From IMG/VR virus record IMGVR_UViG_3300045988_070547, positions 1 through 43,393 of that record: DNA of 43,393 bases; one strand, 5' to 3'. The position numbers were made by a program, and so were the translations under genes. Below are positions 12,943 through 43,393 of this stretch, in pieces (position 1 is the stretch's first letter; the number at the start of each line of letters is the position of its first letter). The notes beneath the pieces are model-generated. The model was not told where the DNA came from and searched no databases. It saw only the letters and a program-made list of their open reading frames with translations. This DNA is from a virus.

Positions 12943-12950
12943 AAGGATCG

Positions 12951-12979: not shown

Positions 12980-12980
12980 C

Positions 12981-13014
12981 ACAAAAATAGGGGATGCCGT
13001 CACCAGCATCCCCC
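12981..13014 (-). terminator. Rho-independent terminator facing the minus-strand early operon
   Basis: Minus strand GGGGATGC-tggtgacg-GCATCCCC followed by TATTTTTGTG. Confidence 0.65.
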
Positions 13015-23040: not shown

Positions 23041-23050
23041 TGCGTACCTC

Positions 23051-23293
23051 CTACCTCATTGTTCCCTTCTCGATAAAGTCCATTCTGTCGTTGTCTGCAT
23101 ACAGACCGAAGACCACCCAGGAAACAATCTTCTCGAACACCTTGTAAGCGTCCATCAAGTCGTCAAACGTTCTGCTAACGCTTCTTCCGTTCTTGTCGTT
23201 ATGCGCTCTCACCGCATACTTGTTACTGGCCTTGTTAATGCTGTAATGCACCTGTCTGCTAACATCATCAACGCTTGTAATCATGAAATCCAT
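23051..23293 (-). CDS. Hypothetical early protein (80 aa)
   Basis: ORF in the operon. No motif recognised. Confidence 0.5.
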   Translation of the reverse strand: MDFMITSVDDVSRQVHYSINKASNKYAVRAHNDKNGRSVSRTFDDLMDAYKVFEKIVSWVVFGLYADNDRMDFIEKGTMR

Positions 23294-23294
23294 C

Positions 23295-23438
23295 TTACAT
23301 ACCTCCTAACAAAATTACTGCCACCATCAGCAGCGTTCCGATTGTGCCTCCGATGTACATTCCCAGCGTGTCGCCGTTGTACTCTTCCGCCGCTTCATCT
23401 TCGAGGAACTTCTTAATCTTCAATCTGAAATTCTTCAT
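23295..23438 (-). CDS. Small C-terminally membrane-anchored protein (47 aa)
   Basis: ATG 23438 with AAGGAAAGGAAAAAGG upstream. ...GMYIGGTIGTLLMVAVILLGGM is a TM helix. The longer track ORF overlaps the upstream gene by 113 nt. Confidence 0.45.
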   Translation of the reverse strand: MKNFRLKIKKFLEDEAAEEYNGDTLGMYIGGTIGTLLMVAVILLGGM

Positions 23439-23592
23439 AACCTTTTTCCTTTCCTTTGCGAAAATCATCAATATTGAGTCGAATACTTTTCCCGATTCTG
23501 TAATACGGGATTGAATCGCTCTCAATAAGTCGGTATACAGACACCGTGCTAATCCCCATGATTTCCGCGAACTCTGATACCTTCACAAACAT
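23413..23592 (-). CDS. Excisionase/MerR-type HTH DNA-binding protein
   Basis: MFVKVSEFAEIMGISTVSVYRLIESDSIPYYRIGKSIRL matches the helix-turn-helix_17/Xis pattern. GGAGG lies 5 nt upstream of ATG 23592 (alternative ATG at 23604). Confidence 0.55.
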   Translation of the reverse strand: MFVKVSEFAEIMGISTVSVYRLIESDSIPYYRIGKSIRLNIDDFRKGKEKGYEEFQIED

Positions 23593-23637
23593 CACAGCCT
23601 CCATTCGTTTACTTTTCAGCTGATTTGGCTAAGAAAA

Positions 23638-23853
23638 TTAGCCGTTTTGGCTAAAAAAAATTTTCTTCATTTCTGCCATTGTTCTAATGTTAAGCAATTC
23701 GCACAGCGTGTTTACTTCTTGTGACGTGAAAGCGGATGCATTGATTCTCTTACGGCGAAACGCCTGATAAGTAATACCCATCGCTTTGCACAACTGGCTT
23801 TTCTTAAGTCCTGATTCTTTAATTTTCAAATTTAGAAGCTCAGTATTTACCAT
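23638..23853 (-). CDS. Cro-like HTH regulator (first gene of the early leftward operon)
   Basis: ATG 23853 with AAAGGAGGTG SD. ...LKKSQLCKAMGITYQAFRRK.... Divergent from the CI-like gene. Confidence 0.6.
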   Translation of the reverse strand: MVNTELLNLKIKESGLKKSQLCKAMGITYQAFRRKRINASAFTSQEVNTLCELLNIRTMAEMKKIFFSQNG

Positions 23854-23891
23854 CAAGCACCTCCTTTCCGTTGACTACTTTTGACAGTCAT

Positions 23892-23920
23892 ATAATATCA
23901 TTTTGGCTAACAGAAGTCAA
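23892..23920 (-). promoter_or_regulatory. Early (cro-side) promoter TTGACT-17-TATTAT
   Basis: Minus strand reads TTGACTtctgttagccaaaatgaTATTAT. The TGACAGTCA palindrome lies at the predicted start site. Confidence 0.6.
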
Positions 23921-23947
23921 CGTATTTTTTCAATTTTTTGAAAATTA

Positions 23948-23976
23948 TTGTTCACTTTTTTGCTATATGCTATTAT
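23948..23976 (+). promoter_or_regulatory. Repressor-side promoter TTGTTC-17-TATTAT
   Basis: Plus strand reads TTGTTCacttttttgctatatgcTATTAT, 20 nt upstream of the CI-like ATG. Confidence 0.5.
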
Positions 23977-23995
23977 TGCCACAGGAGGTGGCATT

Positions 23996-24340
23996 ATGAG
24001 TATTGAAACTATAGGGGACAGAGTAAAAAGTAGAAGATTGGCAATGGATATGTCGCAAGAGGACTTAGCAAGGGCGTTGGGTTATAAATCAAAAGCCTCA
24101 ATATTCAAAATTGAGAACGGCACTGGCGACATACCGAGAAGTAAGCTCCCAAAGTTTGCTTCCATTCTCAACTGTTCTATTTCTTATTTAACAGGTTGGA
24201 ACGAGCTTAAAACATTTGATGATGAACATAGAGAAAAAACACCTTATGACATTCTATGCGATAAAATAAGTCGTTTATCTCCGTCCGATATGGAAAACGT
24301 ATCTGATTATATTGATTTTGTTATTAACAAAAGGAAGTAG
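23996..24340 (+). CDS. CI-like XRE-family repressor
   Basis: ATG 23996 with AGGAGGTG SD (114 aa). ...RLAMDMSQEDLARALGYKSKASIFKIENG... Upstream of int and divergent from cro. Confidence 0.75.
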   Translation: MSIETIGDRVKSRRLAMDMSQEDLARALGYKSKASIFKIENGTGDIPRSKLPKFASILNCSISYLTGWNELKTFDDEHREKTPYDILCDKISRLSPSDMENVSDYIDFVINKRK

Positions 24341-24342
24341 TC

Positions 24343-25470
24343 ATGCATATAAAACAGCTTGAAAAGAATAAGTACAGAGTGTGGATTGATATTAACACCG
24401 ACTATGTAGGAAAAAGGAAGCAGAAATCAAAAGTGTTTCACGCTTCCACAAAACGAGATTTAAACAATCAAATAAATGAATGGGTTGAGTCAATATCGGG
24501 AATATCCGCCCAATGCAGAACTGTTTCCGACATGTGTAATGCTGTATGGAGTCAGGTTATCAATAATAAATCCCCAAATACGATTCACACCTACAACGAT
24601 CAGCGCAACCGCATAGACAACACCATCGGTTTGTTGCGCCTTGAAAAGCTTTCCCCTCGCACCCTTCAAATGTGGGTTGATGATTTATCTTCCGAGCTTT
24701 CACCGAGAACAATCCGCTTCACATACTCCCTTCTTCGTAACTGTTGCTCTATTGCTGTAACGTGGAACCTAATTAAGACGAATCCATGTCACGACGTGAG
24801 CCTTCCTTCCGTAAGAAAAAAGGAAGTACAGATATTGTCACCCGAAGATTTCACTGTTTTCTGCTCACACCTAGACGAACTGCCGCTAGATTATAAAGTC
24901 TGTTTCGAACTTGCGTTGTTCGGATCGCTTCGAAAAGGGGAAGTGTTAGGAATAATGGAAGATGAAATTCCTGATGATGGAAGATTCTATATTAAGCGTG
25001 CAAGATATTCACCCAATTTAAGAGAAGTGTTTGTCAAGGAAACGAAAACATCTTCCGGTGAGCGTCTATGCATACTTCCACAATTGGTAGTTGATGATGT
25101 TATAGCCCTTCGGAAACAGCACATACAGAGCAAACTAAGGTATGGGAAAGCGTGGGTCGATTCACCTTATTTGCTGAAAGAAGGAAACGGAGAAGCTTTC
25201 CATGCTTCTCTATGCATAACACGGCTACAATCCTATATGAAGAAAATAGGGCTTGAACCAATCTCTTTCCACGCACTGCGCCACACATACGCTTCGATAT
25301 GCATTTCTTTAGGCGTGAATCCCGAGATAGTATCTAAGCGCATGGGGCATTCAAACATATCAACAACGCTAGGTATATATACGCACTTATTCGAGCAAAA
25401 AAATAATGATGACGAAATAGCGTCAGCATTAGGAACGATGTTGTCTCAATCTGTGGAAAAGTGCGACTAA
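24343..25470 (+). CDS. int: Tyrosine recombinase / phage integrase
   Basis: 375 aa. R...HALRHTYAS...GHSNISTTLGIYTH catalytic-domain motifs. SAM-like N-domain. Confidence 0.9.
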   Translation: MHIKQLEKNKYRVWIDINTDYVGKRKQKSKVFHASTKRDLNNQINEWVESISGISAQCRTVSDMCNAVWSQVINNKSPNTIHTYNDQRNRIDNTIGLLRLEKLSPRTLQMWVDDLSSELSPRTIRFTYSLLRNCCSIAVTWNLIKTNPCHDVSLPSVRKKEVQILSPEDFTVFCSHLDELPLDYKVCFELALFGSLRKGEVLGIMEDEIPDDGRFYIKRARYSPNLREVFVKETKTSSGERLCILPQLVVDDVIALRKQHIQSKLRYGKAWVDSPYLLKEGNGEAFHASLCITRLQSYMKKIGLEPISFHALRHTYASICISLGVNPEIVSKRMGHSNISTTLGIYTHLFEQKNNDDEIASALGTMLSQSVEKCD

Positions 25471-25677
25471 TCTTATCAAATGTTACATTCTCGTTACACT
25501 TTTTACAGTAATCACTCTCAAACCTTTTAATATCAACGATTACAAACAACTTCTCATAGATTATTATTATTTATGAAGCCGATAACACTTGTTAACATCT
25601 CTATCAAAACTGTTGAAAACTAAGCGTTTTATGATGGGGATGTTATTCATTGTTATCCAAAGTTATAAATTTTTCTG
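25471..25677. other. Candidate attP region
   Basis: AT-rich 207-bp non-coding gap right after int. TGTTACA/GTTACA direct repeats on both sides (25481, 25493, 25686, 25697). The core is not identifiable without the host sequence. Confidence 0.4.
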
Positions 25678-26259
25678 TTACACATTTGTTACATCTTCAT
25701 GAGACGGACTGCTATAGCCTTTTTTCCCATCTATGTATGATTCTTTCGCCGCCTCTACGGCTCTTTCCAGCATTGACACGTTTGGGCGAAACTCTTCAGG
25801 TGCTTCTATTTCACCATTCATTAGTTTTAATTTGTAGTCTTCCAAAATGTGTTCAGCTACAAGAATGCGTGCGCCTAATGGGTTGCACAAATGAGCTAAA
25901 GTAAGCTGTATTACTGAGGCTGGACTTGAGCCGTGACTCCCCGAATAGATGTACACCAGTGCAAGTTTATCTTCTGGAGTTAGGTTTTCGGACATTAATT
26001 CATACAGGCGTTCTATATTGTCTGCGTTCTCACTTTCTTCTAAAGCGAACTCGTCGGGATATGACAATATAAACATATACGGGATAGGATTTTCTCCAAC
26101 CGCGCGAAACCACTCTATCATTTCGCTTACAGTCGGCTCACTCTTTCCATTTTCCCACCTACCGATAGTCCGAACTTCCACGTTAAGTGCTTCTGCCATA
26201 AATGATTGTGACTTCCCAACCCTCTTTCTTGTGTACTTCATAATTTCTCCTACCGTCAT
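25678..26259 (-). CDS. XRE-family HTH protein with ~120-aa helical C-terminal domain
   Basis: ATG 26259 with GGGAGGTG SD (193 aa). ...KSQSFMAEALNVEVRTIGRWENGKSEP.... Confidence 0.6.
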   Translation of the reverse strand: MTVGEIMKYTRKRVGKSQSFMAEALNVEVRTIGRWENGKSEPTVSEMIEWFRAVGENPIPYMFILSYPDEFALEESENADNIERLYELMSENLTPEDKLALVYIYSGSHGSSPASVIQLTLAHLCNPLGARILVAEHILEDYKLKLMNGEIEAPEEFRPNVSMLERAVEAAKESYIDGKKGYSSPSHEDVTNV

Positions 26260-26402
26260 TATTCTCACCTCCCAGCCTATTTTATATCAACTAGACAAAA
26301 ATGTAACCATTTTCATTTAAAAACAGTGCATTTTTAGAATTGTGCTACCCGTTTAATTTGGATAAAATCCAACTTATCAAACGTAAAGAAAGGAGCGAAT
26401 CA

Positions 26403-26621
26403 ATGGATAATTTTGTTCGATTAAGTGGGATGCTTGCTAGAAGGTATGATGATTATTTTGTTCTTGATTGCAACGGTGTATTTGTTCGGTGTATTGATTA
26501 TGATACGGCAAAGTTTAAGATAACAGACTGTTTTGTTATCACAGGACATCTTCTCAATCAGTACAGAAGAAATGTGAACACGCTCATAGTTAGCGTTGAT
26601 TCGCTAAAACTTGTCACATGA
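26403..26621 (+). CDS. Hypothetical protein (72 aa), beta-rich
   Basis: ATG 26403 with AAAGGAG SD. Divergent from the 193-aa HTH gene. Confidence 0.5.
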   Translation: MDNFVRLSGMLARRYDDYFVLDCNGVFVRCIDYDTAKFKITDCFVITGHLLNQYRRNVNTLIVSVDSLKLVT

Positions 26622-26644
26622 AAAAAGAGTCGGATAACTCCGAC
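26621..26644 (-). terminator. Hairpin plus T-run closing the 4-gene moron-like unit
   Basis: Minus strand GTCGGA-gtta-TCCGAC followed by TCTTTTTT. Short 6-bp stem. Also lies 8 nt after the plus-strand 72-aa gene. Confidence 0.45.
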
Positions 26645-26771
26645 CCGTTTCCCTGCAAACCGCACATTTGATTTTATCTGAACAGGAGGCGCTCAATGAG
26701 AGAGAACGCTGATTATATGTACAAGTGTATTGTACACCTTTCATCATCGCTTTTCAAGAACATTTGTTCTC

Positions 26772-27176
26772 TTACTGCTTTGTAATATCAACAGCAAGAT
26801 TGCTTCCTGTTACGGCTTGACCGCCCATTACAACAGTCAATGTCGAGCTGTTCCTACCGCAGTACACCCGAACGATTCCGCTTGTTCCCAGTGTGACGGT
26901 ATCTCCCTCCGCCTTGATGGTCTGTGTAGCATTCATTCCCGGAACGGCTGTTCCGTCCTGATACACCGTCATTGTAACATTGCCCGCTACCGTTCCGACT
27001 ACCGTAGCTGTGACGGCAACATCATAATAGCCTTGACCATTAATCTGCATGGCGTTGTTTGTCATTTGGCAACACTGCCCAAAACGTCTAATGATGGTAT
27101 CCGGTTGATAATTACCACCATCCGGAATTGTCGCTGTGCTTGTGTTAACCGCATAAATCGCACTTTTACAACTCAT
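26772..27176 (-). CDS. BclA-C/C1q/TNF-like jelly-roll candidate protein (134 aa)
   Basis: ATG 27176 (MSCKSAIYAVNT...) with AAGGAGGT SD. All-beta pattern ...INGQGYYDVAVTATVVGTVAGNVTMTVYQDGTAVPG...GDTVTLGTSGIVRVYCG...LTVVMGGQAV... No collagen repeats. Confidence 0.4.
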   Translation of the reverse strand: MSCKSAIYAVNTSTATIPDGGNYQPDTIIRRFGQCCQMTNNAMQINGQGYYDVAVTATVVGTVAGNVTMTVYQDGTAVPGMNATQTIKAEGDTVTLGTSGIVRVYCGRNSSTLTVVMGGQAVTGSNLAVDITKQ

Positions 27177-27210: not shown

Positions 27211-27792
27211 TTAGATAGCATTCCCGCAACCGCAGTTTCCGAATGGATTAGCGCCACTGCAATAAGTTGTGGCATTAGGGTATCTCACGACACCGCACAT
27301 TGCGTTCTGCATCTGAAGCTGTGTAACCTGTGCCTGCAACGACTCGATTTTGTTCTGAGACAATGCGTCCAGAATCTTCTGAGTCTGTGCTGTAGTGTTT
27401 GCGTTGATATTTGCGGTATTGATTGCTCCGTTGTAATTCACGCCATCGATACCACGCTGAGTAGTGCAACAACAATCAGAAATCCGATTCTGAGTCTCGT
27501 TGAAGTTTCTCAAAGTCTCATAACCGAGATTTGAGATACCGTTCTGCAAGCCCATGTAATCGCTCTGAAGGCTATCGTTCAGTCTACCTACTGCATTCTC
27601 AAGACCGTTAAAGTTCATTGCGTTGCATAATCCTGCTTCGGTTACTGGTTCGCTCTGATTTCCTCTGTTCCAATATCCGCCGCCCATCATCATCAGAATC
27701 AGAAGGGCGAAAATCCACATTCCACCGTTGCCAAAATATTCATCATTATCCTTTGTGACAGCGGCAATATCAGACAAGCTCATGTTTTCCAT
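27211..27792 (-). CDS. Membrane-anchored Cys-rich, N/Q-rich protein (193 aa)
   Basis: GGAAGGAG SD. TM helix GGMWIFALLILMMMGGGYW near the N-terminus. DCCCTTQRG, coiled-coil QAQVTQLQMQ, C-terminus CGVVRYPNATTYCSGANPFGNCGCGNAI. Confidence 0.55.
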   Translation of the reverse strand: MENMSLSDIAAVTKDNDEYFGNGGMWIFALLILMMMGGGYWNRGNQSEPVTEAGLCNAMNFNGLENAVGRLNDSLQSDYMGLQNGISNLGYETLRNFNETQNRISDCCCTTQRGIDGVNYNGAINTANINANTTAQTQKILDALSQNKIESLQAQVTQLQMQNAMCGVVRYPNATTYCSGANPFGNCGCGNAI

Positions 27793-28676: not shown

Positions 28677-31600
28677 CTACTTTGTAAGATGTTTGAGTGG
28701 GTCAACCGGTTCGCCGTTAATCATCATCTTGAAATCAAGGTGCGGACCCGTAGAAACTCCTGTGTTACCTGACAAGGCGACCTCCTGACCACGTGCAACC
28801 TTCTGACCTTTCCTTACCCCGACTTTAGACAAGTGGCTGTACTGAGTGACTACTCCGTTTCCATGGTCAATCTGCACGATGTTTCCATAGCCTCCTGACC
28901 ACCCTGTCGCGATAACCGTTCCGCCATCGGATGCACTAACCCTTGTGCCTTCAGGGACGGCAATGTCAATTGCTGGATGATTCGATGAAGCGCCTGCGGT
29001 AGGAGCGTTTCTGTAGCCGAAATAGGAAGTGATTGTTCCTCTTGCCGGGAAGATATACTTTCCTGTGGACTTTCCTTTACTTCCATCATCAGCCAATCCG
29101 AGTTCTTGTGCTTCCTTGTAGTACTTCGAGTCCTTAGCAATCTTCACACGGTTACGGTTTTCGTACAGATAATTGATATCCTCTTTGGTAATGCCTGCAT
29201 CCATCAGCTTTGCCAATGACTTCGCCGCACCCTCCGCATTCTCAACTTTGCACGCTTGTTTAAACTCACGTGCCGTATCTGAGTTCTCAATCATCTTTCG
29301 TGAAATGTCCTCTTTTGACCAACCCTGTTCCGCAAGGTAGTTCGTGTACTCGTCCATCCGAGAGAATGCCTTCTTATCCCACTTTTCAATGTCCTTGTGG
29401 TATCTCGTCCGAGTTTCGCTGATAATCGCTTCATTGAACTTTTCCCGAGACTCCTTCGAAACCCCACAAGCCTTCATCAACTTTTTTCTTCGCTCACAAT
29501 CCTTGTACCAATCTGTGATGGAGATTGTTCCTTCTTTAAGGTTCTTCTTCCAGTCCTTCTTGATATAGTTGACAACGGCTTCTTCACGGTACTCACCCTT
29601 CTTGTTCTGAGCTTTTGCGAGAGCCTTCTCAACATCGGCGTCAAAAGCCGCCTTTTCACGTTCCTTCTTGTCTCTCGTAAATCCCCACGAATCCAGCCTT
29701 TTATCAAGCTTCGAGCCCTCTTTGACATGCAGAAGAGCTTTAATTGTTCTACCTCCGAGTCCTTCATCGTCCCAAAATCCGTAGTCGTCGGTATCCTCTG
29801 AGTTTGTGAGCTTGTCATAAGCGCTCTTTAACTTTCCGAAAAGAGTACTTGATTCAGCGGCTTTTTCTGCCACTCCGCCGAGTTTTTTCTCTACTGCATT
29901 TGGTTCTCCAGGGACTTTTCCGCCCATCTCTTTGTATTTCTTTGCGAATACGTCAGCACGGTCTTCCGCGGCGTCCGCAAATACAGCGAATGGATCGGGT
30001 AATCCGAGAGCGTTTGTTACGGCTCCCACGTCTCTTTTAGCATTGGCAAATCCAAATCCTGCAAAGGCGAGGACTGTGTTCAAGAAGTCAACGCTGTCAC
30101 CGATTGATAAGTCGTTATCTTCTTTTTTCTTGTTGTACTTGTAGAGAGCCTTATTGATTGAGTAAAGCCAATCGGACGTAATGTTGCTCTGTGACATCAA
30201 GCTGAAATAATCAACCTCTTCACCGCTTAGCAAATCCAGTGTTGTGTTAAATACATTCCACAACTCTTCAAATCCTGGAATCTGCCGAATAGGATTCTCA
30301 TTATCCCAGAAGTTATCACCAAACAAATCTTTGAATGCCGCAAGATAGGTGATAGGTTCATCATCATCCTTCGCCTTATCCGTTTTCCTCATTGCCTGAA
30401 TGAGAGTCTTTGCAAATGCCGCCGCAAAGGAATTGATTGTAAGAACGGTAGCCATCTTCGTTACTGCCTTGGCGGCTTTCAGCTTTTTCCCGTCCTTCTT
30501 GTATCTTCCTGCTTCGATGAGAGAGTCTCTGAAGATATTGAACGTCTTAAGCGGCTCTGCCTTAAACGAGGACACCGATTTAGCAATGACATTCTTGTCA
30601 CGCATAATCTGTGCTCTGTGAAGTGGAGAGTCTACCGTTTGCGTGTAGTCGAAAATGTATGCCGCACGTTTACCGCAGTACTCAAGGAACTGTTCACTTC
30701 CAGGCTTTAAGTCTTTCCGTGTTTCCCTTGTCTCCGCTTTTACCGCCTTCCAAATGTGGAGCCATGTTCTAAGGTCTGCCGCTTCATAAACACCCATAGC
30801 GAGCGTATCACGAATAGGCTTATGGTTCATGATAATGTCCTCTGATGAGCGTGAGAAGTTCAGTTCGTGGTTTCCTTGGAACTTCCACCACGTAATAGGG
30901 CAATACTTGTTCATCTCATCGATAAGAGCGTTTCGCTTCTTCGCCTGAATCTTCGCCGGAAGCATTGTGTCTTTAGGACTCCGCAGGAAGAAATACTTCG
31001 GGCTAATGGTCATCCACGCTCTGCAAACTGCCGTGTACTGCTGTGCCCACACGCTAAGGTTTGCGGCAATAGCAGCTCTTTTGTAGTTATTCATTCCTGC
31101 ATTGATAATCTTTGACCAACCGTCAATATTCTTATCCTGCTGGTGTCTGAAGTCATTGATGATATTCTTTGTGTAGTCGATAGACTGAGTACCGAACGCA
31201 CGAATCATCTGTTCGCTTACATTCCCTGTGTTCAGAAGACGTGCAATGTCTTTCAGTGCCTTCTGTGAAGAAGCGTACAGATTCATCTCATCGCAGTGAC
31301 GAGCAAATACCCTGATACAATCCTCAATCACAAGAGCGTTCTCTGCCTTCTCGTTTACGTTCTTACTCCATCCAGGGTCAGGAATGCCCGCAATTCCATT
31401 GTAGCCTGTTTCGAGGTTTTTAAACTTTCCGTCCTGTACTGTGTACATCGGAAAATACTTATCTTCCTCAAACAAGCGAACTCCGTACATAGCCATGGAG
31501 GCTTTGTTTCCACGCTCTGCAATTACTGTTGAAAGGTAGTCCTGCATTGCGTTTGCGAACTTCTTCTGCTGTGGTGTAAGCCGTGAGAACATATCTGCTA

Positions 31601-34600
31601 AGTCAGCGTCGGTAACTGCCACCGATTCATAGTCCGTCATGTCACGCATGAGAACCTTATCGGCGACTTTCTCCCGAATCTTTCGCCCGTCCTTCTTAAC
31701 GATAGGAACACGGATGCCTTCTCCGTAGATATGCCGCATCGCCGCTTTACGTTTCGCCAGCAGATACAGTGACATAATCTGTGTGTCGCTTACATCAATT
31801 TTCTTTCCTGATTCAAGCTCAATCTCGTTCCTGTGGTCCTGCCACTTCTGAGCGTCACTGTGACCGCCATTAAGGCGTAACCACCGTTTATTGCCAGGAA
31901 GTGTTTCAACGAACTCTGCTGTTTCCTTCGTGTACTGGAAATACTCATCCTGAGACTTTCTGAGTACGTCCCAAATGTGACTGAACGTGCCACCCGCATT
32001 CTTGAAAAAGCTCATAGGGGTTACGTTATCAAAGTTCACAAAGTCACGAACCAAGCCATAAGCCCCCTTGAATTTCTTCGCTTCTCCGTATCTCTTAATA
32101 GTATCCTCGAAATCAGAGCAAATGCTATCGCTGATTCTTTTGAACGACTCTTTATGTCCGTTCAGTTCCATCTTCTGCCCTTCGGTAATCTCAAATCGAA
32201 TGCCATCGAGAACGTTCTTTACGAGATTCAGCTCCTCTAAATCCATATCTCTCATAGGCTTTCCAATCGAGGCGAGCTGTTCCATGTTGCTCATGAGAAC
32301 GTCATTCTCTGTGAACATGCCCTGATATTCCTTCTCTTTAGAAATTTCAAGCATAGCGTCTCTTAATGCGTGGAGCTTCAATGCCGCACCTGTAGGCACG
32401 CCAGTTTTCTCAATGCTTCTCTGCTCTGCCTTAATCGAGTTTGCCGACTGAATGTCGAGTGCTACAAGAGCTTGTGCTAGTGGTCTTCGAATCTCTTGCG
32501 GGATGTTCTTATCGTACCTCCGCTCCTTTGTGAGAAGTCTTGACGAAAGCCATGCATAGTTCACGTTGATTTTATCAAGAACCTTTTTAGTCTCTTCACG
32601 CAGTTTCCGCTTTTCTTCTTTCGCCTTGTTCTTTTCCTTTACTTTCTCGATACGCTTATCTCGAGCATCAAGCATTTTCTTATACTTCGTTTCCTGGGAT
32701 TCGAGTTTCTTCTCATACTTCTTCTCCCTATTTTCCGCCGTAGCTTTCGTTTTACCCAATTCATTTTTCGTGTCTTTCAGTTCGGCGGCGAGAGCGTCCC
32801 GTTCACCTTTAAGGCGGTTCTTCATCGTGTCGTACTTTTCCTTCTGCTTATCGGCATAGGTTTTATACGATTCCGCATCCTGAACAAGGATTTCCGAAAG
32901 GTCGTTTACGAGAGTCTTTTTCATTTGGTTGCAATCATAGATAACATCAAAGCCTTGTTCTCTGTATATCCAGTCTTCCCACTGCCGCATTCCTTCCTCA
33001 ACGATGTCTGGGAGGCTGTCGTCGTTATGAATTTCTTTCATATCATATAGCGGACCACCTAATGTCGAATATTCTGTACCAAATAGCAAGCGTGATAAAG
33101 TCGGGAGGTTTTCTAACCAATGGTCGGAATTTGCCTGCTTCTCAATCTGTCCAGCCTCAACCATTTGACCGAACACTCCTCTACGACTGCTGTCCGCGTG
33201 CCTTATTGTTACAAAGCGATATCTCTTATTCCTATCGGTTAGTGTTTCACCCCATCCTCTACCGCTATGTTTGTTTCCGTTTCTATCTCTAGCGATATAA
33301 ATAGGGTTCTTCCTAAGTTCTCTCTTTGCCACGATGAAGTCACTCATATCATCGTTTTCATAGTTCTCACGAACCACGTCCACAATCTCTTCACTTGCTT
33401 TTTCCAATACGTCGTAAACAACATCCATATTCGGATGTTCTTTCTGAAGTTCATAGTATGCTGTTGAGAGAGCGTCTACCGTAAAATCTCTTGTCTCACG
33501 CATGGTCTTCTTCGACATTACAGTGTCCGTGCCGACAACCTCGTGCAGAAGGTCGCTAACCTTGTTCTTCACGGACTTTGCGTCCAACACCTGACCATGT
33601 GTAAGTTTCTTGTCTGCCTTAAGCGGTTCAATAACAGAATCGATAGTTTCCTTAATTTCCGCTCTCGTGTCGATGTTATCCTGTTCAATCATAGGATTGA
33701 ATCGTGGGAACGACTGTTTCTTGAAGTCCTTGTGTTCCTCATTCTCTTCATTCCAGTTGATAAGTTCGGATATAAGTTCACTGTCTTCACTGTTCTCATT
33801 GTTAGTGAAACCTTTAAGATAATTATTGTATTTATCATCATATGTAGTGTCCACGGATTCCTGTTCTAATCCATTACGCCGTCTGTACTCGATTAACTGT
33901 GCTACACGCTCCATTCTTTCGTCAAGCTCTCCCCTCTGAGAAATGAGCTTATTCTTTTCTTCACGCTCTTCTGCCGTTAAAGTTCTTATCGGTTCAAAGT
34001 TTTCATCTACTTCAGCGTATTCGGCGATTGCTTTATCTATGCGATCGTATTCCTCCTGGTCGGAAGCCGTCCACCGCTCTTCTCCGTATTCTCTGAGCTG
34101 TTTTTCATACTCGTCTTTGTTTAAGTGGTGTATATAATATTCATCCATTTGCGGTTCATAATCAGGTGAATATTCATCGTTTACGGAATATGCTTTTTCT
34201 TCACGCTGTACCATCTTTCCAAGACCCATAGCAAGCTTTTTGTTGTGGAGTGCTGTTGCCAAAAACTCTTCGGCATCCTTAAGAAGATTGTACTGAGAGA
34301 ACAGAGCTTCCTTGTATCTGCTGTCGAACTGATTTCCGAGACCGAATATATCCCGAATCTTTCTGATTACCCTTCTAACGGCGTTTAAAAGCGTTCTGCC
34401 GGCTTTAAAATGCTTTTCGGTAATTCTGTCCATGAACTTATCATCGTGCAGAATTTCGCCCATCTGAGAGCAAATAACCTCTTCCAATGCCTGCTCATCG
34501 TTAAGCTCTTTCCCCGCATTCTTGTAGCGTTCTTTCACGCTCTCAATTGTCTTCTTGAAGTTCTCCGCATTATCCTGTGTCCACATCGTCTTGAATGCTT

Positions 34601-37600
34601 TAGCAAGGTTTGTGTACCCTTTGGAATCATAATCCTTGATACCGTGGACAAGCTCATGCATTGCAGTATATGCCATATTTTCAGAAGGTGTAGCCGAATT
34701 CAGAATAATCGTATTCGTTGCATAGTCAAACAGACCGTTCACATCGGCTCCGTTTGTGTAGCTCTGAATGTCTTCGGTCAATTCAATGTTCACCGAGAAG
34801 ATATCGGCAAACTGTTTCAACGCTTTTCTTGTTTCGGCGGTCACATTGCCGTTTGCCTTTACGGTAAATCCATTCCCCGATGAATCGATTTTACCCGCTC
34901 CAATCATGGAGTCTACATCCTCTTCCTTGAATCCGTAGTTCTCCACAATGTCACGCTTGATAGTATCAAGTATGTTATCAGGCTTTCCTTCCTTCGCCGC
35001 ATTATACGCACGCTCCATCTGCCGCATGAGAACGTTGTAATCCGCTTCGGATGAAACGTCTGCTTTGCTTGAAATCTCCTGTACTACGCTTTGTCCGATA
35101 GAGCCCATGTTATTCGAGTACTCGGATTCATATCTGCCACGTACTTCGTTCTTGTACACTTCGTTCTCTTCCCGTGCAAGGGTAACAAAATTATCTGCCG
35201 CCTTTGCAAAAAGGTATTCTCTTGTTGCCCTGTTTGTTTCAACCGCATTCAATGTGCCGTCGCTGTTCAGCTCCTGCGGTAACTTCTCTCCGGTCGCCTG
35301 TTCAAATACCTCACGCTCTTCTGTTTTGTTAGACATAAGAGTTTCCACGTCTTCTGGATTCAGCGTTCCTGTTTCAAGGTTTCCTGCCGCTCTTGCTACG
35401 TCGCCAATCTGAGCATCGTCAAGTCGCCTATCTTCATCAAAAGACTTGTTCATTTCATTTGCCGTGTCGGTGACTTTCTTTATAACCTCGTCTCCGTGCT
35501 GTTGAGCGAGTCGAGACGATCCATTAACAAGTCTGTCTGCCCCTGCGTCAAGCTTCTCATTCTGAGCTTTCTGCATAGCTAAATTCCGTGCAGTCTGAAT
35601 AGACTCAGAGTCCTTTGTCATCTGAGTATTGATAGCATGAGCAAGTTCAGCGTACTGCTCCAAGGCAATGTCCGTTCCCTCGTTAGCAGTATCTTTAATT
35701 GCTTGTGCTCTTGTGGAAATTTTGCTATCCTCCACATTCACCGCAATATCCGCGAGTGCCTGTGCCGTGTTATAACTTGAAACCTTTTCCGAGAGTACGT
35801 TCTTGAGAATTTCAGGACTGAGATTATCGTTGAGTCCTCTCATGCTCTTCATTGCATAGTTCTGCTTCAGACTGTCTCTAACATCTGCTCCGTAGGAAAG
35901 AACACGACCATTAGTTGCTACACCTGTTACTGCTGTCATAATGTATGCAGAAGCCATGGCATCCAAAGTGTCGGAAGCAGAGAATTTCTGTTTCACGGAA
36001 ACACCTTTCATGTATTCTGCCGTCATTTCATCTTCAAATTTCTTCGCCTTTTTAGAGTCGCCTGAAATGCTTGCGGATAGATACTTTTGCATTTTTTCTG
36101 CCATGGAAACAGCCTGTTTCTGACTCATTCCCGAATCCACATAGGATTGAATCAGCTCTTCCGAAAACTCTTTACTGTTAATGTCTTCTCCGTAAGCCTT
36201 CGCCAGTTCTTCCCTGCTGACTCCATACTGAGCCGCCTCATTAGAGATTCTATCTTCAAGGCTATCTGAACCGCTGAGAAGCATTTCACGGTAGCTCTTT
36301 TCTCTCCGAGAATCTACGGCGTTCCCATAGGAAAGGTTCGCAATAGGCGCATCCAAAATCCCGCCTATAAGTTCTTCTGTTGCTTCTTCTGTTCCACCGA
36401 GTGCAAGCTTTGCGCCCGAATAAGCCACATTAGCCGCTACGTTTCCGAATCTGTTTCCGACCCCTACGGCGAGTCTATCAAGTGCGGTTGACTTTAAAGC
36501 ACCGAGCCCAGTTTTCTCAAGAGCCGCTCCTGCTCCAGTGAGCTTGCTTGCGAGACCTGCTCCAGCGAACATGTACTCTGTGCCAGTCTCTTTTAATGCT
36601 TGTAGCACGGAATACAGTCTATCTTCACCAACTGTTGCTCCCTGCGCCTCTGCACTACCTCTTGTGTTACCGTACGTTCTAGCTGCCATGGACACAGCCC
36701 AATACGGACCGAATGTCATGTCTGCCGCCGTGCCGAGTCCTGACGTATAGGCACCCATGAGGATTTTCTCAAAGCGTGTTAATCCTTCCATGGATTTTTC
36801 AACCTGTCTGTCTCCGCTTGCCTGAATCTTCTCTCCAACGGAATACAAAGCCTTCCCTGGATTATACATGCCGCCACTACGCATATACTGCTCTGCGTTG
36901 TTGTAGCCGTCCTTAACCCCTCTGAGAGTGTTCTTAGTGCCCTCTGACACGTCCTTTCGCTGAATCTGACTATTGATAAATCTTTCTTCTTCGAACTTGT
37001 TTGCCTTAACGATAGAAGCTCCGCCGTGTCTTGTGTACACGTCCGCAACGTCGCCAGCAGTCTTTGCAAAGCCTCCGACAATCTGTTTCCCTGTTCCGAC
37101 TGTAGCGTCACTTAATCTCTCATCAGCATGAGCCAACTTCGTATTGGACAAATCGATACGGTTATTATCCATTCTCCGAGAAGCTGTAGAACCGTTCTGA
37201 TGTTCTCCCATCTCCATAGGGGAAGCACCATAGGAAACCTTTTCCTTGCTCCGATTTTTCGATAGCTGCTTTTTGGTTTCTTCGAGCTTTTTCTGATTCT
37301 CAATCTCAACCTGTCTATCCGACTTGTCGGAAATTCTGCGCAATGAAACAGCCTGATTCTCACGCTCTGTTTCTTCGTTCTTCTTAATCCGCTGAGCTTC
37401 TTCGTAGTACTTGCCCGATTTATTCTTCACGCTCTCACGAACAGCGTTAACGTCCTTGTTGAAGTTGTTCCCGAGCTGAGAGCTACCGTTAGAGCCACTC
37501 TCTTTCACTTTTGCCTGAAGATTCTTCCGTGCGGTTTCCGCTTCAATGCGATCCTGATTATTCTTTTTAACCTCTGCCATTCCGCGAACCGCTTCTTGCT

Positions 37601-38294
37601 GATTCGCGTTCTTCGTTCCGTTGAACTTCCCTTCGTGCTGTTTCTGCCCTGAAGACTCCTGCTCCATGTAGTCTTTTGCACGCTGTCTGTTCTGTTCGGT
37701 TATTTCATTCTCAATCTTGACTTGCTTCTCATGAATAGGTTCAGTCTGCTGTTCAGACATTACGCCGTCATGGAGTTTGGACGGACTGGAAGTTTTCGAG
37801 TAGCGATTTTCTACCGCCTTAATTCCCTCTCTTCTCTGCTTCTCAATAGCCTGCTGTCTCTCACGCTTTTCAGGGTTATACTTTGCCGTTTCCCTTGTCG
37901 CCTGAAAAGTATTTCCGAGACGAGAAGTAGACGAACGTTCCCTGTTGAGGTAACTGTTCGCCGCTTTTTTTCGTGATTCATAACTATCACGCTGAGAAGT
38001 AGATGGTGTGGAAACACTCTGAACCCTTCTCTTTACTTCCTTCTTGCTTTTGTTCGCATTGGTAGATTGAAAAGTGTTTCCTGTAGAGCCGTTTCCCGAA
38101 TGTATGTTTTGATACTCTCTATAAGCCTGACTACCGCTCTTTTTAGGAGTGGACTTCTTTACTTCATTTACACGCTTGCTTACTTCTTTCTTGCTTTTAT
38201 TCGTGTTAGTAGAAAGGAAAGAGTTCCCTGAAGAACCCTTTCCTTTGTGGGCTTTAAGATACGCTTCATACGCTTTCTTATCTTTCTTTCCCAA
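28677..38294 (-). CDS. Giant 3,205-aa polyvalent-type protein (basic N-terminal repeats, TMP-like hydrophobic segment, zincin HExxH module, coiled coil, large unknown region, C-terminal M23 peptidase)
   Basis: Single uninterrupted ORF. Probable TTG start at 38294 with AAAGGGG 7 nt upstream. See the domain features and findings. Confidence 0.85.
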   Translation of the reverse strand: MGKKDKKAYEAYLKAHKGKGSSGNSFLSTNTNKSKKEVSKRVNEVKKSTPKKSGSQAYREYQNIHSGNGSTGNTFQSTNANKSKKEVKRRVQSVSTPSTSQRDSYESRKKAANSYLNRERSSTSRLGNTFQATRETAKYNPEKRERQQAIEKQRREGIKAVENRYSKTSSPSKLHDGVMSEQQTEPIHEKQVKIENEITEQNRQRAKDYMEQESSGQKQHEGKFNGTKNANQQEAVRGMAEVKKNNQDRIEAETARKNLQAKVKESGSNGSSQLGNNFNKDVNAVRESVKNKSGKYYEEAQRIKKNEETERENQAVSLRRISDKSDRQVEIENQKKLEETKKQLSKNRSKEKVSYGASPMEMGEHQNGSTASRRMDNNRIDLSNTKLAHADERLSDATVGTGKQIVGGFAKTAGDVADVYTRHGGASIVKANKFEEERFINSQIQRKDVSEGTKNTLRGVKDGYNNAEQYMRSGGMYNPGKALYSVGEKIQASGDRQVEKSMEGLTRFEKILMGAYTSGLGTAADMTFGPYWAVSMAARTYGNTRGSAEAQGATVGEDRLYSVLQALKETGTEYMFAGAGLASKLTGAGAALEKTGLGALKSTALDRLAVGVGNRFGNVAANVAYSGAKLALGGTEEATEELIGGILDAPIANLSYGNAVDSRREKSYREMLLSGSDSLEDRISNEAAQYGVSREELAKAYGEDINSKEFSEELIQSYVDSGMSQKQAVSMAEKMQKYLSASISGDSKKAKKFEDEMTAEYMKGVSVKQKFSASDTLDAMASAYIMTAVTGVATNGRVLSYGADVRDSLKQNYAMKSMRGLNDNLSPEILKNVLSEKVSSYNTAQALADIAVNVEDSKISTRAQAIKDTANEGTDIALEQYAELAHAINTQMTKDSESIQTARNLAMQKAQNEKLDAGADRLVNGSSRLAQQHGDEVIKKVTDTANEMNKSFDEDRRLDDAQIGDVARAAGNLETGTLNPEDVETLMSNKTEEREVFEQATGEKLPQELNSDGTLNAVETNRATREYLFAKAADNFVTLAREENEVYKNEVRGRYESEYSNNMGSIGQSVVQEISSKADVSSEADYNVLMRQMERAYNAAKEGKPDNILDTIKRDIVENYGFKEEDVDSMIGAGKIDSSGNGFTVKANGNVTAETRKALKQFADIFSVNIELTEDIQSYTNGADVNGLFDYATNTIILNSATPSENMAYTAMHELVHGIKDYDSKGYTNLAKAFKTMWTQDNAENFKKTIESVKERYKNAGKELNDEQALEEVICSQMGEILHDDKFMDRITEKHFKAGRTLLNAVRRVIRKIRDIFGLGNQFDSRYKEALFSQYNLLKDAEEFLATALHNKKLAMGLGKMVQREEKAYSVNDEYSPDYEPQMDEYYIHHLNKDEYEKQLREYGEERWTASDQEEYDRIDKAIAEYAEVDENFEPIRTLTAEEREEKNKLISQRGELDERMERVAQLIEYRRRNGLEQESVDTTYDDKYNNYLKGFTNNENSEDSELISELINWNEENEEHKDFKKQSFPRFNPMIEQDNIDTRAEIKETIDSVIEPLKADKKLTHGQVLDAKSVKNKVSDLLHEVVGTDTVMSKKTMRETRDFTVDALSTAYYELQKEHPNMDVVYDVLEKASEEIVDVVRENYENDDMSDFIVAKRELRKNPIYIARDRNGNKHSGRGWGETLTDRNKRYRFVTIRHADSSRRGVFGQMVEAGQIEKQANSDHWLENLPTLSRLLFGTEYSTLGGPLYDMKEIHNDDSLPDIVEEGMRQWEDWIYREQGFDVIYDCNQMKKTLVNDLSEILVQDAESYKTYADKQKEKYDTMKNRLKGERDALAAELKDTKNELGKTKATAENREKKYEKKLESQETKYKKMLDARDKRIEKVKEKNKAKEEKRKLREETKKVLDKINVNYAWLSSRLLTKERRYDKNIPQEIRRPLAQALVALDIQSANSIKAEQRSIEKTGVPTGAALKLHALRDAMLEISKEKEYQGMFTENDVLMSNMEQLASIGKPMRDMDLEELNLVKNVLDGIRFEITEGQKMELNGHKESFKRISDSICSDFEDTIKRYGEAKKFKGAYGLVRDFVNFDNVTPMSFFKNAGGTFSHIWDVLRKSQDEYFQYTKETAEFVETLPGNKRWLRLNGGHSDAQKWQDHRNEIELESGKKIDVSDTQIMSLYLLAKRKAAMRHIYGEGIRVPIVKKDGRKIREKVADKVLMRDMTDYESVAVTDADLADMFSRLTPQQKKFANAMQDYLSTVIAERGNKASMAMYGVRLFEEDKYFPMYTVQDGKFKNLETGYNGIAGIPDPGWSKNVNEKAENALVIEDCIRVFARHCDEMNLYASSQKALKDIARLLNTGNVSEQMIRAFGTQSIDYTKNIINDFRHQQDKNIDGWSKIINAGMNNYKRAAIAANLSVWAQQYTAVCRAWMTISPKYFFLRSPKDTMLPAKIQAKKRNALIDEMNKYCPITWWKFQGNHELNFSRSSEDIIMNHKPIRDTLAMGVYEAADLRTWLHIWKAVKAETRETRKDLKPGSEQFLEYCGKRAAYIFDYTQTVDSPLHRAQIMRDKNVIAKSVSSFKAEPLKTFNIFRDSLIEAGRYKKDGKKLKAAKAVTKMATVLTINSFAAAFAKTLIQAMRKTDKAKDDDEPITYLAAFKDLFGDNFWDNENPIRQIPGFEELWNVFNTTLDLLSGEEVDYFSLMSQSNITSDWLYSINKALYKYNKKKEDNDLSIGDSVDFLNTVLAFAGFGFANAKRDVGAVTNALGLPDPFAVFADAAEDRADVFAKKYKEMGGKVPGEPNAVEKKLGGVAEKAAESSTLFGKLKSAYDKLTNSEDTDDYGFWDDEGLGGRTIKALLHVKEGSKLDKRLDSWGFTRDKKEREKAAFDADVEKALAKAQNKKGEYREEAVVNYIKKDWKKNLKEGTISITDWYKDCERRKKLMKACGVSKESREKFNEAIISETRTRYHKDIEKWDKKAFSRMDEYTNYLAEQGWSKEDISRKMIENSDTAREFKQACKVENAEGAAKSLAKLMDAGITKEDINYLYENRNRVKIAKDSKYYKEAQELGLADDGSKGKSTGKYIFPARGTITSYFGYRNAPTAGASSNHPAIDIAVPEGTRVSASDGGTVIATGWSGGYGNIVQIDHGNGVVTQYSHLSKVGVRKGQKVARGQEVALSGNTGVSTGPHLDFKMMINGEPVDPLKHLTK
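28680..29057 (-). other. M23/LytM peptidoglycan endopeptidase domain (last 126 aa of the giant ORF)
   Basis: YIFPARGTITSYFGYR...HPAIDIAVPEGTRV...GYGNIVQIDHGNG..TQYSHLS...GNTGVSTGPHLDF carries the HxxxD and HxH-type M23 signatures. Confidence 0.85.
34425..34907 (-). other. Zincin-like metallopeptidase module of the giant ORF (HELVH at nt 34644-34658, aa 1213-1217)
   Basis: ...NGLFDYATNTIILNSATPSENMAYTAMHELVHGIKDY.... HExxH read directly from atgcatgagcttgtccacgg on the minus strand. Confidence 0.6.
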
Positions 38295-38308: not shown

Positions 38309-39034
38309 CTATTTCTTTTTATTCTTTTGAAGTTTGGATGCCGCCGCCGTTACTTTATCGGCAAAGGACTTTCCACCCGAACCACCGCTAGAGCCTGTGG
38401 AGGTCGAGGCGCTAGGTGAATAATAAGTGCTTCCGCTACTTCTTCTGCCACCTCCGCTACTCTTCCGAGAAGACCTCCGACCCCCAGAAGAGCTACTTTT
38501 TTTTGCTTGATATACATTCACGTTGTAGTTCAGGCGATTCATGAGAGAATCTTCCTTGAAGTTCTTACCCTGCCAATAGTTGTTGTTGTTCTGCTCATAT
38601 CCCCACTGACTATCCGATACCTTGTCTCTGTACCGTCCGTATGACGTGTCGTCTGCGTCTCTAAGTGCGGACAAGGAAGTGGAAGCTCGATTATACGCCT
38701 TGTCTTCAAGCTCCATAGCCTTTGTGGCAAATTCTGCGTTGTAGTCGTTCCTTGACTGCTGAGCCGCACTGACCGCATAGCTTGTTCCGAATCCTCCGTT
38801 GAGTGCCGCCGCATCCCCCATTGTATTCCTAGCCGCCTGTTCGCCACGTTGTGTGTACAGTTTCGAAAGCGACTGATAACTAGCGTCCTTTGTGGGGTCG
38901 TACTTCCAATTAACGACATTATCAAGGGCACTTGAAAGCTGTTTGTCGTAAGCACCCTTATATCCAGCAGGTGCTTTGTATGTAGGTGCTTTGACTGTTG
39001 GGGCTTTAGTGCTTACATACTTTATTCCGCCCAT
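38309..39034 (-). CDS. Hypothetical protein (241 aa) with Ser/Gly/Arg-rich C-terminus, co-transcribed with the giant ORF
   Basis: AAAGGAG SD. ...KKSSSSGGRRSSRKSSGGGRRSSGSTYYSPSASTSTGSSGGSGGK.... No family recognised. Confidence 0.55.
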   Translation of the reverse strand: MGGIKYVSTKAPTVKAPTYKAPAGYKGAYDKQLSSALDNVVNWKYDPTKDASYQSLSKLYTQRGEQAARNTMGDAAALNGGFGTSYAVSAAQQSRNDYNAEFATKAMELEDKAYNRASTSLSALRDADDTSYGRYRDKVSDSQWGYEQNNNNYWQGKNFKEDSLMNRLNYNVNVYQAKKSSSSGGRRSSRKSSGGGRRSSGSTYYSPSASTSTGSSGGSGGKSFADKVTAAASKLQKNKKK

Positions 39035-39111: not shown

Positions 39112-39816
39112 CTATTTCAAGCGAATCCGCACATATACTGTTCTGTTTTCGTACTTCTGTTTTCTCTTTGGTCCGAGGTTTTTCGGCTTCACGTCCGAAC
39201 CTCCTGCCGAATACCATAAGGCGTGTCCGTTCTTATCTTTGCCGACATACACCATCGTGTGAGGTTTATTGGCAAATCCGCAAATGTCCCCAGGTTTCAG
39301 TTTCGCTTGTCTCCACTTCTTTCGAGGGTATGCGACTTTCGCCTTTTTCTTGATAATGTCTTTCCCCGTTCCGTGAATCTTCGTATCAAGCCAAATGTAT
39401 TTTCCCTTTGGAAGAACGCCGATTTCCTGTAGCCCGAAAGAGATAAAGGTCGCACAATTCGTTCTCTTTCCCTTCAACGCACTGGCCAAACTCTTACACG
39501 GATGATTAGCATTATACTTCACACCAGCTTTAATCAACTTATGTGCGATCACCTTAAGTTCCTTCAGAAGTTTGTCTGCCTTCGTACTCTTCGGAACGGA
39601 AACAAGACGGACATATTTCTGCCCTTTAGAATCCTTCCAAATAGTCCAACCTTTGAGTGCCGGAACGTAAATGTAGTATCCTTTAATCTTTGTGGCATGA
39701 ACCTTTGTTCCAACCGAAAGAGTTTTTTTCAGCTTCGACTTGTAAGACGGCTTCACCCGCAGTGGGTCCGCTTTGATAACAACGTACGTTCTGTTAATCT
39801 TCCTACTTTTTGCCAC
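39112..39816 (-). CDS. Second lysin: SH3-like N-domain plus Cys-His (NlpC/P60- or CHAP-like) peptidase domain
   Basis: GTG 39816 (VAKSRKINRTYVVIKADPLRV...) with GGGAAGG upstream. Trims the 306-aa track ORF, which otherwise overlaps the amidase. Catalytic candidates NCATF and HTMVYVG. Confidence 0.55.
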   Translation of the reverse strand: MAKSRKINRTYVVIKADPLRVKPSYKSKLKKTLSVGTKVHATKIKGYYIYVPALKGWTIWKDSKGQKYVRLVSVPKSTKADKLLKELKVIAHKLIKAGVKYNANHPCKSLASALKGKRTNCATFISFGLQEIGVLPKGKYIWLDTKIHGTGKDIIKKKAKVAYPRKKWRQAKLKPGDICGFANKPHTMVYVGKDKNGHALWYSAGGSDVKPKNLGPKRKQKYENRTVYVRIRLK

Positions 39817-43042: not shown

Positions 43043-43393
43043 CTACGCCGTTCTCTTCCACACATACACGGCTAAATACGGTGGCATGTTCTTTCCCGCT
43101 CCATCACTTCCTGTCCAGTCCGTACTACCAGCATATCTGAGTCCTGAGGCATCCGCATTTGAAGCATTCTTCTTACCAACAATCGCATACCGCGCACTGC
43201 TTGCTGTTGACGTTCCTACACGTACTCTTTCAACCGTGCCGCTCATATAAGTGTTAAATCCGTCACCAGTAGACGGTTGATGAAGGTGCTTCACCACTAC
43301 TGCGTCAGCAGAACCACCTGTGCTACCGGCGCCGTATGAGTTACCGGAAGCAAGAAGGAACGTGTCTTGAATCCGTTCCCACGACCCACCAAA
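43043..43393 (-). CDS. Same tail-fibre tip-domain gene, 3' part (43275-43393 duplicates 1-119)
   Basis: The frame stays open to the window end. Stop at 43043. Ends ...NMPPYLAVYVWKRTA. Confidence 0.75.
   Translation of the reverse strand, partial: FGGSWERIQDTFLLASGNSYGAGSTGGSADAVVVKHLHQPSTGDGFNTYMSGTVERVRVGTSTASSARYAIVGKKNASNADASGLRYAGSTDWTGSDGAGKNMPPYLAVYVWKRTA
43275..43393. repeat. Right copy of the 119-bp end overlap (identical to 1-119)
   Basis: Same as the left copy. Consistent with circular assembly closure or permutation. Confidence 0.95.

Follow-up and report, generated by a model that had tools for sequence, protein, structure and literature searches.

The window analyzed here is a 43,393-nt stretch of viral DNA (IMG/VR virus record IMGVR_UViG_3300045988_070547, positions 1 to 43,393 of that record), and the question that it raises is what is made by a single open reading frame (ORF) on its minus strand, which extends from 28677 to 38294 (9,618 nt, 3,205 codons) and accounts for 22.2% of the 43,274-bp unit genome. 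The product, a 362-kDa protein of 3,205 residues, is in our assessment probably a polyvalent-class protein that is packaged in the capsid and serves in ejection or as a pilot, encoded by a temperate, short-tailed phage of Mogibacterium, a bacterium of the gut and mouth. Polyvalent proteins have been argued to be packaged and delivered with the DNA, with a zincin serving as the processing hub (Iyer, Burroughs, Anand, de Souza & Aravind, 2017; PMC5512222). The best-conserved part of the giant protein is a core module of ~850 residues (aa ~1900–2760), and the main new finding of this analysis is that this core, as judged from its predicted structure and its homologues, is abundant and unannotated, with a confident model and without a solved relative.

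The reading frame itself was examined at the gene level. No other ORF of that size is present in the window, and the probability that 3,205 random codons are free of stops is ~1e-67. The stop codon lies at 28677–28679, and translation starts at a TTG codon (38294–38292), which is preceded, after a spacer of 7 nt, by the Shine-Dalgarno sequence AAAGGGG (38308–38302 on the minus strand), located right behind the TAG of the preceding ORF. Both the TTG codon and the Shine-Dalgarno sequence are retained in L001, a relative with ~88% identity, and the start site proposed in the preliminary description of this DNA was thus correct in detail, whereas its estimate of ~200 codons before the first in-frame ATG was not, as the first Met is aa 179. 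The N-terminal 180 residues show 91–98% conservation at the protein level among 119 relatives and are therefore translated. In addition, a protein identical to the product of this ORF (P0001) was predicted by others on a 43,395-bp contig.

The core module (aa 1921–2760; 30015–32534, minus strand) carries no Pfam or NCBIfam name; none of the models of these databases, including the LPD families and tiled searches of Pfam, matched it. It matches the unannotated family phrog_22978 (E = 2e-104). An HMMER scan with aa 1760–2959 as the query against 1.84 billion cluster representatives at the 50% identity level yielded 3,329 clusters at E ≤ 1e-3, 2,311 of them at E ≤ 1e-30. Nearly all of the 150 matches listed align to positions ~30–925 of the query, and lie inside proteins of 2,000–4,700 aa. 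AlphaFold2 modeling of aa 1880–2800, with an alignment of 38 of the core-matching relatives, gave a single, almost purely helical fold with a mean predicted local distance difference test score (pLDDT) of 79 and a predicted template modeling score (pTM) of 0.81. The region that had been described as large, globular-looking and unnameable (aa ~1950–2750) is thus predicted to fold confidently and has no relative in Pfam, NCBIfam or the PDB. The possibility that the center of the protein is a mere coiled-coil or tape-measure spacer, which the preliminary description had named as what would overturn its view, is not borne out by the model, which shows a folded domain.

When the core model was compared to BFVD by Foldseek, 77 entries matched at E ≤ 1e-3; most of their TM-scores are ~0.45–0.7, and a small number lie near 0.3. 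Those at the top of the list are without exception large viral proteins, whole or fragmentary, labeled as nuclease, MuF C-terminal domain, PolyVal ADP-ribosyltransferase, LPD-containing or uncharacterized; proteins of aquatic phages with ~10–13% identity are also included. A search of 72,556 plasmids gave no match to the core, and a tblastn search of aa 1–3000 against annotated phage genomes returned only two unannotated fecal fragments and no isolate relative.

Besides the core, two peptidase modules were identified. The zincin-like module (aa 1125–1370; 34185–34922, minus strand) contains HELVH at aa 1213–1217 (34644–34658), which is the sole HExxH of the giant protein. Five residues (H1213, E1214, H1217, Y1257, and E1272) do not vary among 18 diverse relatives or among 119 close ones, and the AlphaFold2 model shows three or four short beta strands followed by the HExxH helix. 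All of the database signals for this module are sub-threshold and all of them point toward zinc peptidases: DUF6782 (E = 2e-4) and M78 (E = 2e-3) in Pfam, weak Foldseek matches to abylysin (probability 0.54) and PprI, and profile matches to ECE-1, Wss1, and IrrE at E = 0.09–0.8. These results suggest that the HExxH…E unit is a conserved zincin-like module, in agreement with the zincin metallopeptidase motif (MHELVHG) noticed from the sequence.

The C-terminal module (aa 3076–3205; 28680–29069, minus strand) is an M23/LytM peptidoglycan endopeptidase domain, as previously proposed for the last 126 residues. Peptidase M23 (PF01551) matches aa 3105–3199 with E = 1.7e-31 and 108.7 bits against a gathering cut-off of 28.7, and ShyA in the PDB is matched with E = 4e-25. 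The domain also resembles its counterparts in two phage internal proteins of known structure, 9m7n ('Gp16') and 9k2v ('Internal protein'). The HxxxD motif (H-P-A-I-D) and the catalytic His (S-H-L) are present. The HxH motif reads H-L-D in the giant protein (aa ~3189–3191, within 28680–28730), whereas it is H-L-H in ShyA, and the Asp is retained in the consensus sequences of the family.

Where a giant protein of this kind would carry its effectors was addressed by comparison within the family; the counts below refer to 148 listed representatives, 113 of which have both the zincin and the core. The entire collinear layout, consisting of a Gly/Ala segment, a helical domain, the zincin, the core, a pre-M23 region, and M23, is present in 53 of the 148. 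The distance between the zincin and the core varies from 297 to 2,479 aa in the 113 relatives (median 1,368) and correlates with total protein length (r = 0.95), while the flanking parts vary little. The additional domains of the relatives lie in this interval. The largest relatives all carry ART-PolyVal, and M23 as well (11 of 11), and single ones carry PBECR5, MuF_C or Zeta_toxin. A subfamily with ~34% identity displays many combinations of slot domains, in addition to LPD3 and GNAT acetyltransferases.

In the giant protein studied here, this slot spans 555 aa, which is among the shortest in the family. Its acidic variable part (aa 1371–1800; 32895–34184, minus strand; net charge −38) contains two hypervariable spots around a semi-conserved pre-core segment. 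The 119 near-identical relatives share 90–100% identity with the giant protein except at aa 1351–1500 and 1651–1800, where the identity is 26–63% and indels occur. The divergence across aa 1351–1800 (32895–34244, minus strand) could be caused by diversifying selection or by recombination. On these sequence comparisons, the slot both gains and loses cassettes over long times and is a divergence hot spot over short times. Searches of Pfam, including tiling, and of NCBIfam recognized no effector domain in the giant protein besides the two peptidases. The copy in this genome is thus a minimal-cargo member of its family, and the hope that it conceals many new activities is weakened.

These observations bear on how the protein had been characterized from the sequence. 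Its description as polyvalent holds in that its conserved blocks are homologous to carriers of ART-PolyVal, PBECR5, MuF_C, and LPD3, but not in that this copy contains an effector. The further suggestion that the protein is multi-effector is unsupported or overstated, with no recognizable effector and a slot of 555 aa compared to the median of 1,368, and so is the view that its dark length could hide new activities, as most of that length is a conserved scaffold common to thousands of relatives.

The remaining regions of the protein are mostly helical or low in complexity. The N-terminal region (aa 1–440; 36975–38294, minus strand), identified by composition and self-BLAST, is basic, of low complexity and lineage-specific: it is almost uncovered by distant relatives, yet 91–98% conserved in close ones, and among the representatives listed the giant protein has the longest N-terminal region. 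Residues 1–170 have an isoelectric point of 10.4 and a net charge of +26. Of the three ~50-aa basic repeats that had been reported for aa 1–150, the basic character was confirmed but the long repeats were not; self-BLAST of the giant protein found none, and the sole recurring element is a short motif (Y..h..G.GS.GN.F…K.EV, at aa ~9, 57, 113, and 265, in three clear copies and one degenerate copy), giving the region 3–4 short G.GS.GN.F repeats.

The segment that follows (aa 441–700; 36195–36974, minus strand; assigned by composition and the model) is Gly/Ala-rich, with a G+A content of 26–33% in aa 500–700. It is common to ~60 of the 148 distant relatives and is modeled as helical with low to moderate pLDDT. 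The preliminary description was right about its Gly/Ala richness but not in calling it hydrophobic and tape-measure-like, since the Kyte-Doolittle peak is 1.0; a membrane-inserting or tape-measure-like segment is unsupported at this hydropathy. It is followed by a conserved all-helical domain N-terminal to the zincin (aa 701–1124; 34923–36194, minus strand), which is common to ~65 of the 148 relatives and has a pLDDT of mostly 80–90. Between the slot and the core lies a K/E-rich, coiled-coil-like long helix (aa 1801–1920; 32535–32894, minus strand), where both the K/E richness described earlier (32 K+R and 23 D+E in aa 1801–1900) and one long helix in the AlphaFold2 model (aa 1881–1921) were found. 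A linker and a helical pre-M23 domain (aa 2761–3075; 29070–30014, minus strand) occur together with M23 in ~75 of the 148 relatives.

The genome in which this protein is encoded points to a short-tailed virion. The ends of the window (1–119 and 43275–43393) are identical over 119 nt, so that the window represents a complete genome, assembled as a circle of 43,274 bp. Pfam and PHROG scans of the other large ORFs identified TerS, TerL, a major capsid protein, a tail protein with Gp10_C, and a P22-type portal (PF16510, P22_portal, E = 4e-32), as well as an Amidase-type endolysin, DnaD/DnaC-like replication proteins, a tyrosine integrase, and a helix-turn-helix repressor; the same scans of the large ORFs found no tape measure, tube or sheath families. 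Judged by this gene content, the phage is temperate, short-tailed, and podovirus-like. The giant gene is the last of the late operon, whose strand and tight spacing it shares; its neighbors are genes for the tail and for lysis, and the lysogeny module. Thus, the podovirus-like setting assumed from the sequence is supported by the portal, by the lack of tape measure families in these scans, and by the position of the gene in the late operon. The distant relatives L005 and L006 keep this layout, with capsid genes, tail genes, the giant gene, and lysis genes followed by the integrase and repressor. The giant gene of L006 (10001–24058) encodes 4,685 aa and occupies ~33% of a 42.8-kb contig.

The host was identified through L001, where a 99-kb contig holds the ~88%-identical copy in the form of a prophage. 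The host genes flanking this prophage encode exact Mogibacterium proteins, including those of M. kristiansenii and Mogibacterium sp., which makes the host a Gram-positive, anaerobic member of the Clostridia (the loci for the host evidence are L001, 22804–29528, and L002/L003). The use of Shine-Dalgarno sequences and the TTG start fit a Firmicute host. A relative (P0329) is carried by Gallibacter sp. Marseille-QA0791. Prevotella, the label of the sole species-genome match, was rejected as the host; this match is a metagenome-assembled genome that is contradicted by the Mogibacterium flanks and is probably mis-binned.

The homology of the giant protein to proteins with PolyVal domains places it in the polyvalent class (PMC5512222), and the genome context, the family, and the precedents of phi24B gp47, cyanophage A4 gp28, and the LM41 prophages together lead to its interpretation as an ejection or pilot protein, which we consider likely. 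During assembly, a few copies of the giant protein would be loaded into the head. Upon adsorption, the protein would exit through the P22-type portal and the short tail, before or with the DNA, by analogy with T7 gp14–16, cyanophage A4 gp28, N4 gp50, and phi24B gp47. The M23 domain, which is firmly identified, would then cut peptidoglycan cross-links locally, so that the short tail could reach the membrane. The all-alpha core and the other helical domains may provide the structural body, either by forming a core inside the capsid or by lengthening the DNA conduit, and the zincin might cleave the polyprotein itself or a host target; self-processing of the giant protein is something that we infer. 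The interval between the zincin and the core is a swappable, fast-evolving slot, filled in relatives by an ADP-ribosyltransferase, a nuclease, a Zeta toxin or an acetyltransferase.

Several observations weigh against this interpretation as an ejection protein. In this genome the giant gene follows the holin and endolysin genes, which is unusual for a structural gene, and the presence of the giant protein or its close relatives in virions is deduced rather than observed. A sequence profile compared to all PDB chains matched M23 only and no solved ejection protein, and the best Foldseek match of the core model in the PDB had E = 0.3 and a TM-score below 0.1; given this lack of likeness to solved ejection proteins, the conduit or in-capsid role of the core is an analogy. 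hhalign of the giant protein with phi24B gp47 aligned only 35 residues around HExxH, with a probability of 4.8%. The Pfam model MPTase-PolyVal did not match the zincin module. Hydrophobicity sufficient for a membrane span was not found, the Kyte-Doolittle maximum in 19-residue windows being 1.0 in aa 500–700 and 1.42 protein-wide. Finally, the third zinc ligand of M23 would be an Asp and not a His; Asp is able to bind zinc, and judging by the motif alone the activity of the domain is not guaranteed.

The alternatives place the protein elsewhere in the virion or outside it. An M23 domain is common in tail-associated lysins and tape measure proteins, the C-terminus of the giant protein matches phrog_167 as well as endolysin and peptidase PHROGs, and the giant gene adjoins tail genes, all of which would suit an external virion part, such as a tail-associated lysin or a tail hub or fiber with a long helical body on the tail tip. 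However, the 362-kDa product is a compact all-alpha fold with no beta-helix, fiber or receptor-binding features, and the cytoplasm-acting domains of its relatives (ADP-ribosyltransferase, nuclease, and Zeta toxin) make sense only if they are delivered into the cell. In addition, phi24B gp47 (vb_24B_48; 2,811 aa), for which a role in ejection has been proposed, was found by mass spectrometry to be abundant in virions and is absent from the external density obtained by cryo-electron microscopy (bioRxiv 10.64898/2026.04.10.717836). We thus consider an external location unlikely. The same M23 domain with its match to phrog_167, the large size, and the Gly/Ala-rich helical segment would also be expected of the tape measure protein of a long-tailed phage, an explanation that we regard as very improbable. 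The phrog_167 match is restricted to M23, the scans of the large ORFs revealed no tube, sheath, chaperone or frameshift pair, the portal is P22-type, and the model is a globular multi-helix fold and not an extended coiled coil. Moreover, tape measure proteins extend ~1.5 Å per residue, so that 3,205 aa would dictate a tail of ~480 nm.

The location of the giant gene after the holin and endolysin genes and beside the lysogeny module is a typical position for a moron, and JGI labels relatives of its product as MepM/NlpD-type murein endopeptidases. An unpackaged late protein, acting as a lysis accessory, a secreted wall hydrolase or toxin, or a lysogenic-conversion factor, is nevertheless improbable, somewhat more so than an external part. 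The gene is on the strand of the late operon and tightly spaced with it, in L006 it lies ahead of the lysis genes, and it is the largest gene in every related phage, accompanied by a conserved upstream partner. A hydropathy scan, run without a dedicated signal-peptide or wall-anchor predictor, found no signal-peptide-like or strongly hydrophobic N-terminal segment. The expenditure of 22–33% of the genome on an accessory gene is also implausible. As for the core, its fusion to a zincin recalls the N4-type virion RNA polymerases, which are always fused to MPTase domains (PMC5512222), the size of the giant protein is near that of N4 gp50, and KxxxxxxYG at aa ~2180 resembles the T7-type motif B. 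That the core is a cryptic N4-like or crAss-like virion RNA polymerase, fused to a zincin as in N4 gp50, is nonetheless largely refuted and is the least credible of these explanations. KxxxxxxYG is not conserved even in the nearest distant relative (P0120), the giant protein contains no DxDGD motif, and the core consists almost wholly of helices and lacks palm or double-psi-barrel sheets. No polymerase is present among the PDB fold or profile matches of the core, the sole alignment to the N4 mini-virion RNA polymerase came from the model of the N-terminal half with E = 8, and a temperate phage with a repressor has no need of such an enzyme. A T7/N4-type RNA polymerase was rejected on the unconserved KxxxxxxYG, the missing DxDGD, and the lack of a polymerase fold match.

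A bolder version of the ejection-protein interpretation concerns the core itself, and we put it forward tentatively, as a possibility that is more doubtful than not. The core may represent a previously undescribed, phage-specific fold that is the universal structural heart of a very large class of single-polypeptide 'ejectosomes'. In thousands of temperate short-tailed phages, a single giant polypeptide would do what T7 and P22 divide among three or four separate ejection proteins; it would form the in-capsid core, the DNA conduit across the Gram-positive wall, or both, and would at the same time be a chassis that takes up exchangeable effector cassettes at one defined slot.

The giant-protein family matters for several reasons. 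Short-tailed phages of Gram-positive gut anaerobes have barely been studied, and this includes the passage of their DNA across the thick wall; in this family, a single gene probably contains the whole entry machinery. The family offers a defined wall enzyme, a candidate self-processing peptidase, and a single swappable slot for takeover or anti-defense domains, and the hypervariable slot is a natural place for new effectors in the relatives, though not in this copy. A single structure of the core, or a single proteome of the virions, would be enough to annotate thousands of entries in the databases, and would be informative for the question raised by phi24B of how a protein of ~2,800 residues is organized within the capsid.

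One of the neighboring genes may encode a partner of the giant protein. The ORF directly upstream (38309–39034, minus strand) encodes 241 aa with a Gly/Ser/Arg-rich tail, and shares 44% identity (E = 9e-40) with the ORF that immediately precedes the giant gene in L006; comparison with families and PDB sequences gave no match. The conservation of this neighbor suggests that it is a candidate partner of the giant protein. The 667-aa protein encoded at 1349–3352 (minus strand) matches phrog_511, 'internal virion protein', over its C-terminal half (E = 3e-50), is 36% identical to its L006 counterpart, and has no match in Pfam or the PDB; it is either a tail hub or nozzle or a second internal protein. 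A basic 234-aa ORF after the Amidase_3 endolysin (39112–39816, minus strand), which is absent from L006, has a weak match to Amidase_6 (E = 0.003) and could encode another cell-wall hydrolase. On the downstream side of the giant gene, a 193-aa ORF (27211–27792, minus strand) contains one hydrophobic helix (Kyte-Doolittle value 1.53) and a Cys-rich C-terminus (…DCCCTTQRG…CGCGNAI), and matches phrog_16490, whose function is unassigned. The composition of the genome is a mosaic, noticed at ~9000–13000 and ~23000–27000 of the window: the guanine-cytosine (GC) content is 0.50–0.54, with a change in the sign of the GC skew, around the terminase genes and the 11–13 kb region, 0.39–0.40 over the integrase and repressor module, and ~0.45 elsewhere.

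Comparison with known systems shows where the giant protein belongs. The protein of the Stx phage phi24B, gp47, resembles it in belonging to a temperate podovirus, in having its giant ORF 3'-terminal in the late region and next to the attachment end, and in its zincin motif, whereas gp47 carries the set LPD5, LPD1, LPD38, and MuF-C, has no M23, and comes from a phage with a Gram-negative host. Homology of the core to the phi24B giant protein was rejected, as hhalign aligned only the HExxH stretch.

Cyanopodophage A4 gp28 is a capsid-internal pre-ejectosome protein composed of helical bundles, a lytic transglycosylase, and M23 (PMC12002296), and is probably the 'Internal protein' of PDB entry 9k2v (1,058 aa), as judged by the matching length only. 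Like the giant protein as we interpret it, gp28 and 9m7n 'Gp16' are capsid-internal ejection proteins with helical bundles and an M23 domain in the C-terminal part. Unlike it, they are three times shorter, and gp28 adds the lytic transglycosylase; the likeness is confined to M23, the helical parts having no fold match. Outside this lysin domain, no homology to solved ejection proteins was found by the PDB profile search or by Foldseek of the core and the N-terminal half. N4 gp50 (~3,500 aa) is a giant protein with a zincin module that is packaged in a podovirus head and ejected, as we propose for the present protein, but the latter has no polymerase fold or motifs, and N4 is lytic with a Gram-negative host.

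A similar setting is that of LM41 phi1 and phi4 of Clostridium clostridioforme, predicted podovirus-type prophages of ~41 kb that are spontaneously released as particles, and in which an 8-kb ORF at the 3' end, ~20% of the genome, has been noted in passing as polyvalent-like (PMC11318856). These phages share with the present one the temperate lifestyle, a host among the Clostridia, and a giant ORF at the 3' end; the likeness is by description only.

With the polyvalent proteins (PMC5512222), the giant protein shares its giant multidomain organization, its location beside late virion genes, and effector-carrying homologues, and its HExxH…E module is a putative counterpart of their zincin-like hub. 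It differs from them in that an effector fusion occurs only in the homologues and not in this copy, that its zincin-like module is unmatched by MPTase-PolyVal and its dominant ~850-aa core falls outside the Pfam and LPD families, and that it ends in M23, a term that occurs 0 times in that paper. Overall, this kind of object is already known as the polyvalent class, and what is new is the delineation of the core and of one defined slot, in temperate podoviruses of Clostridia.

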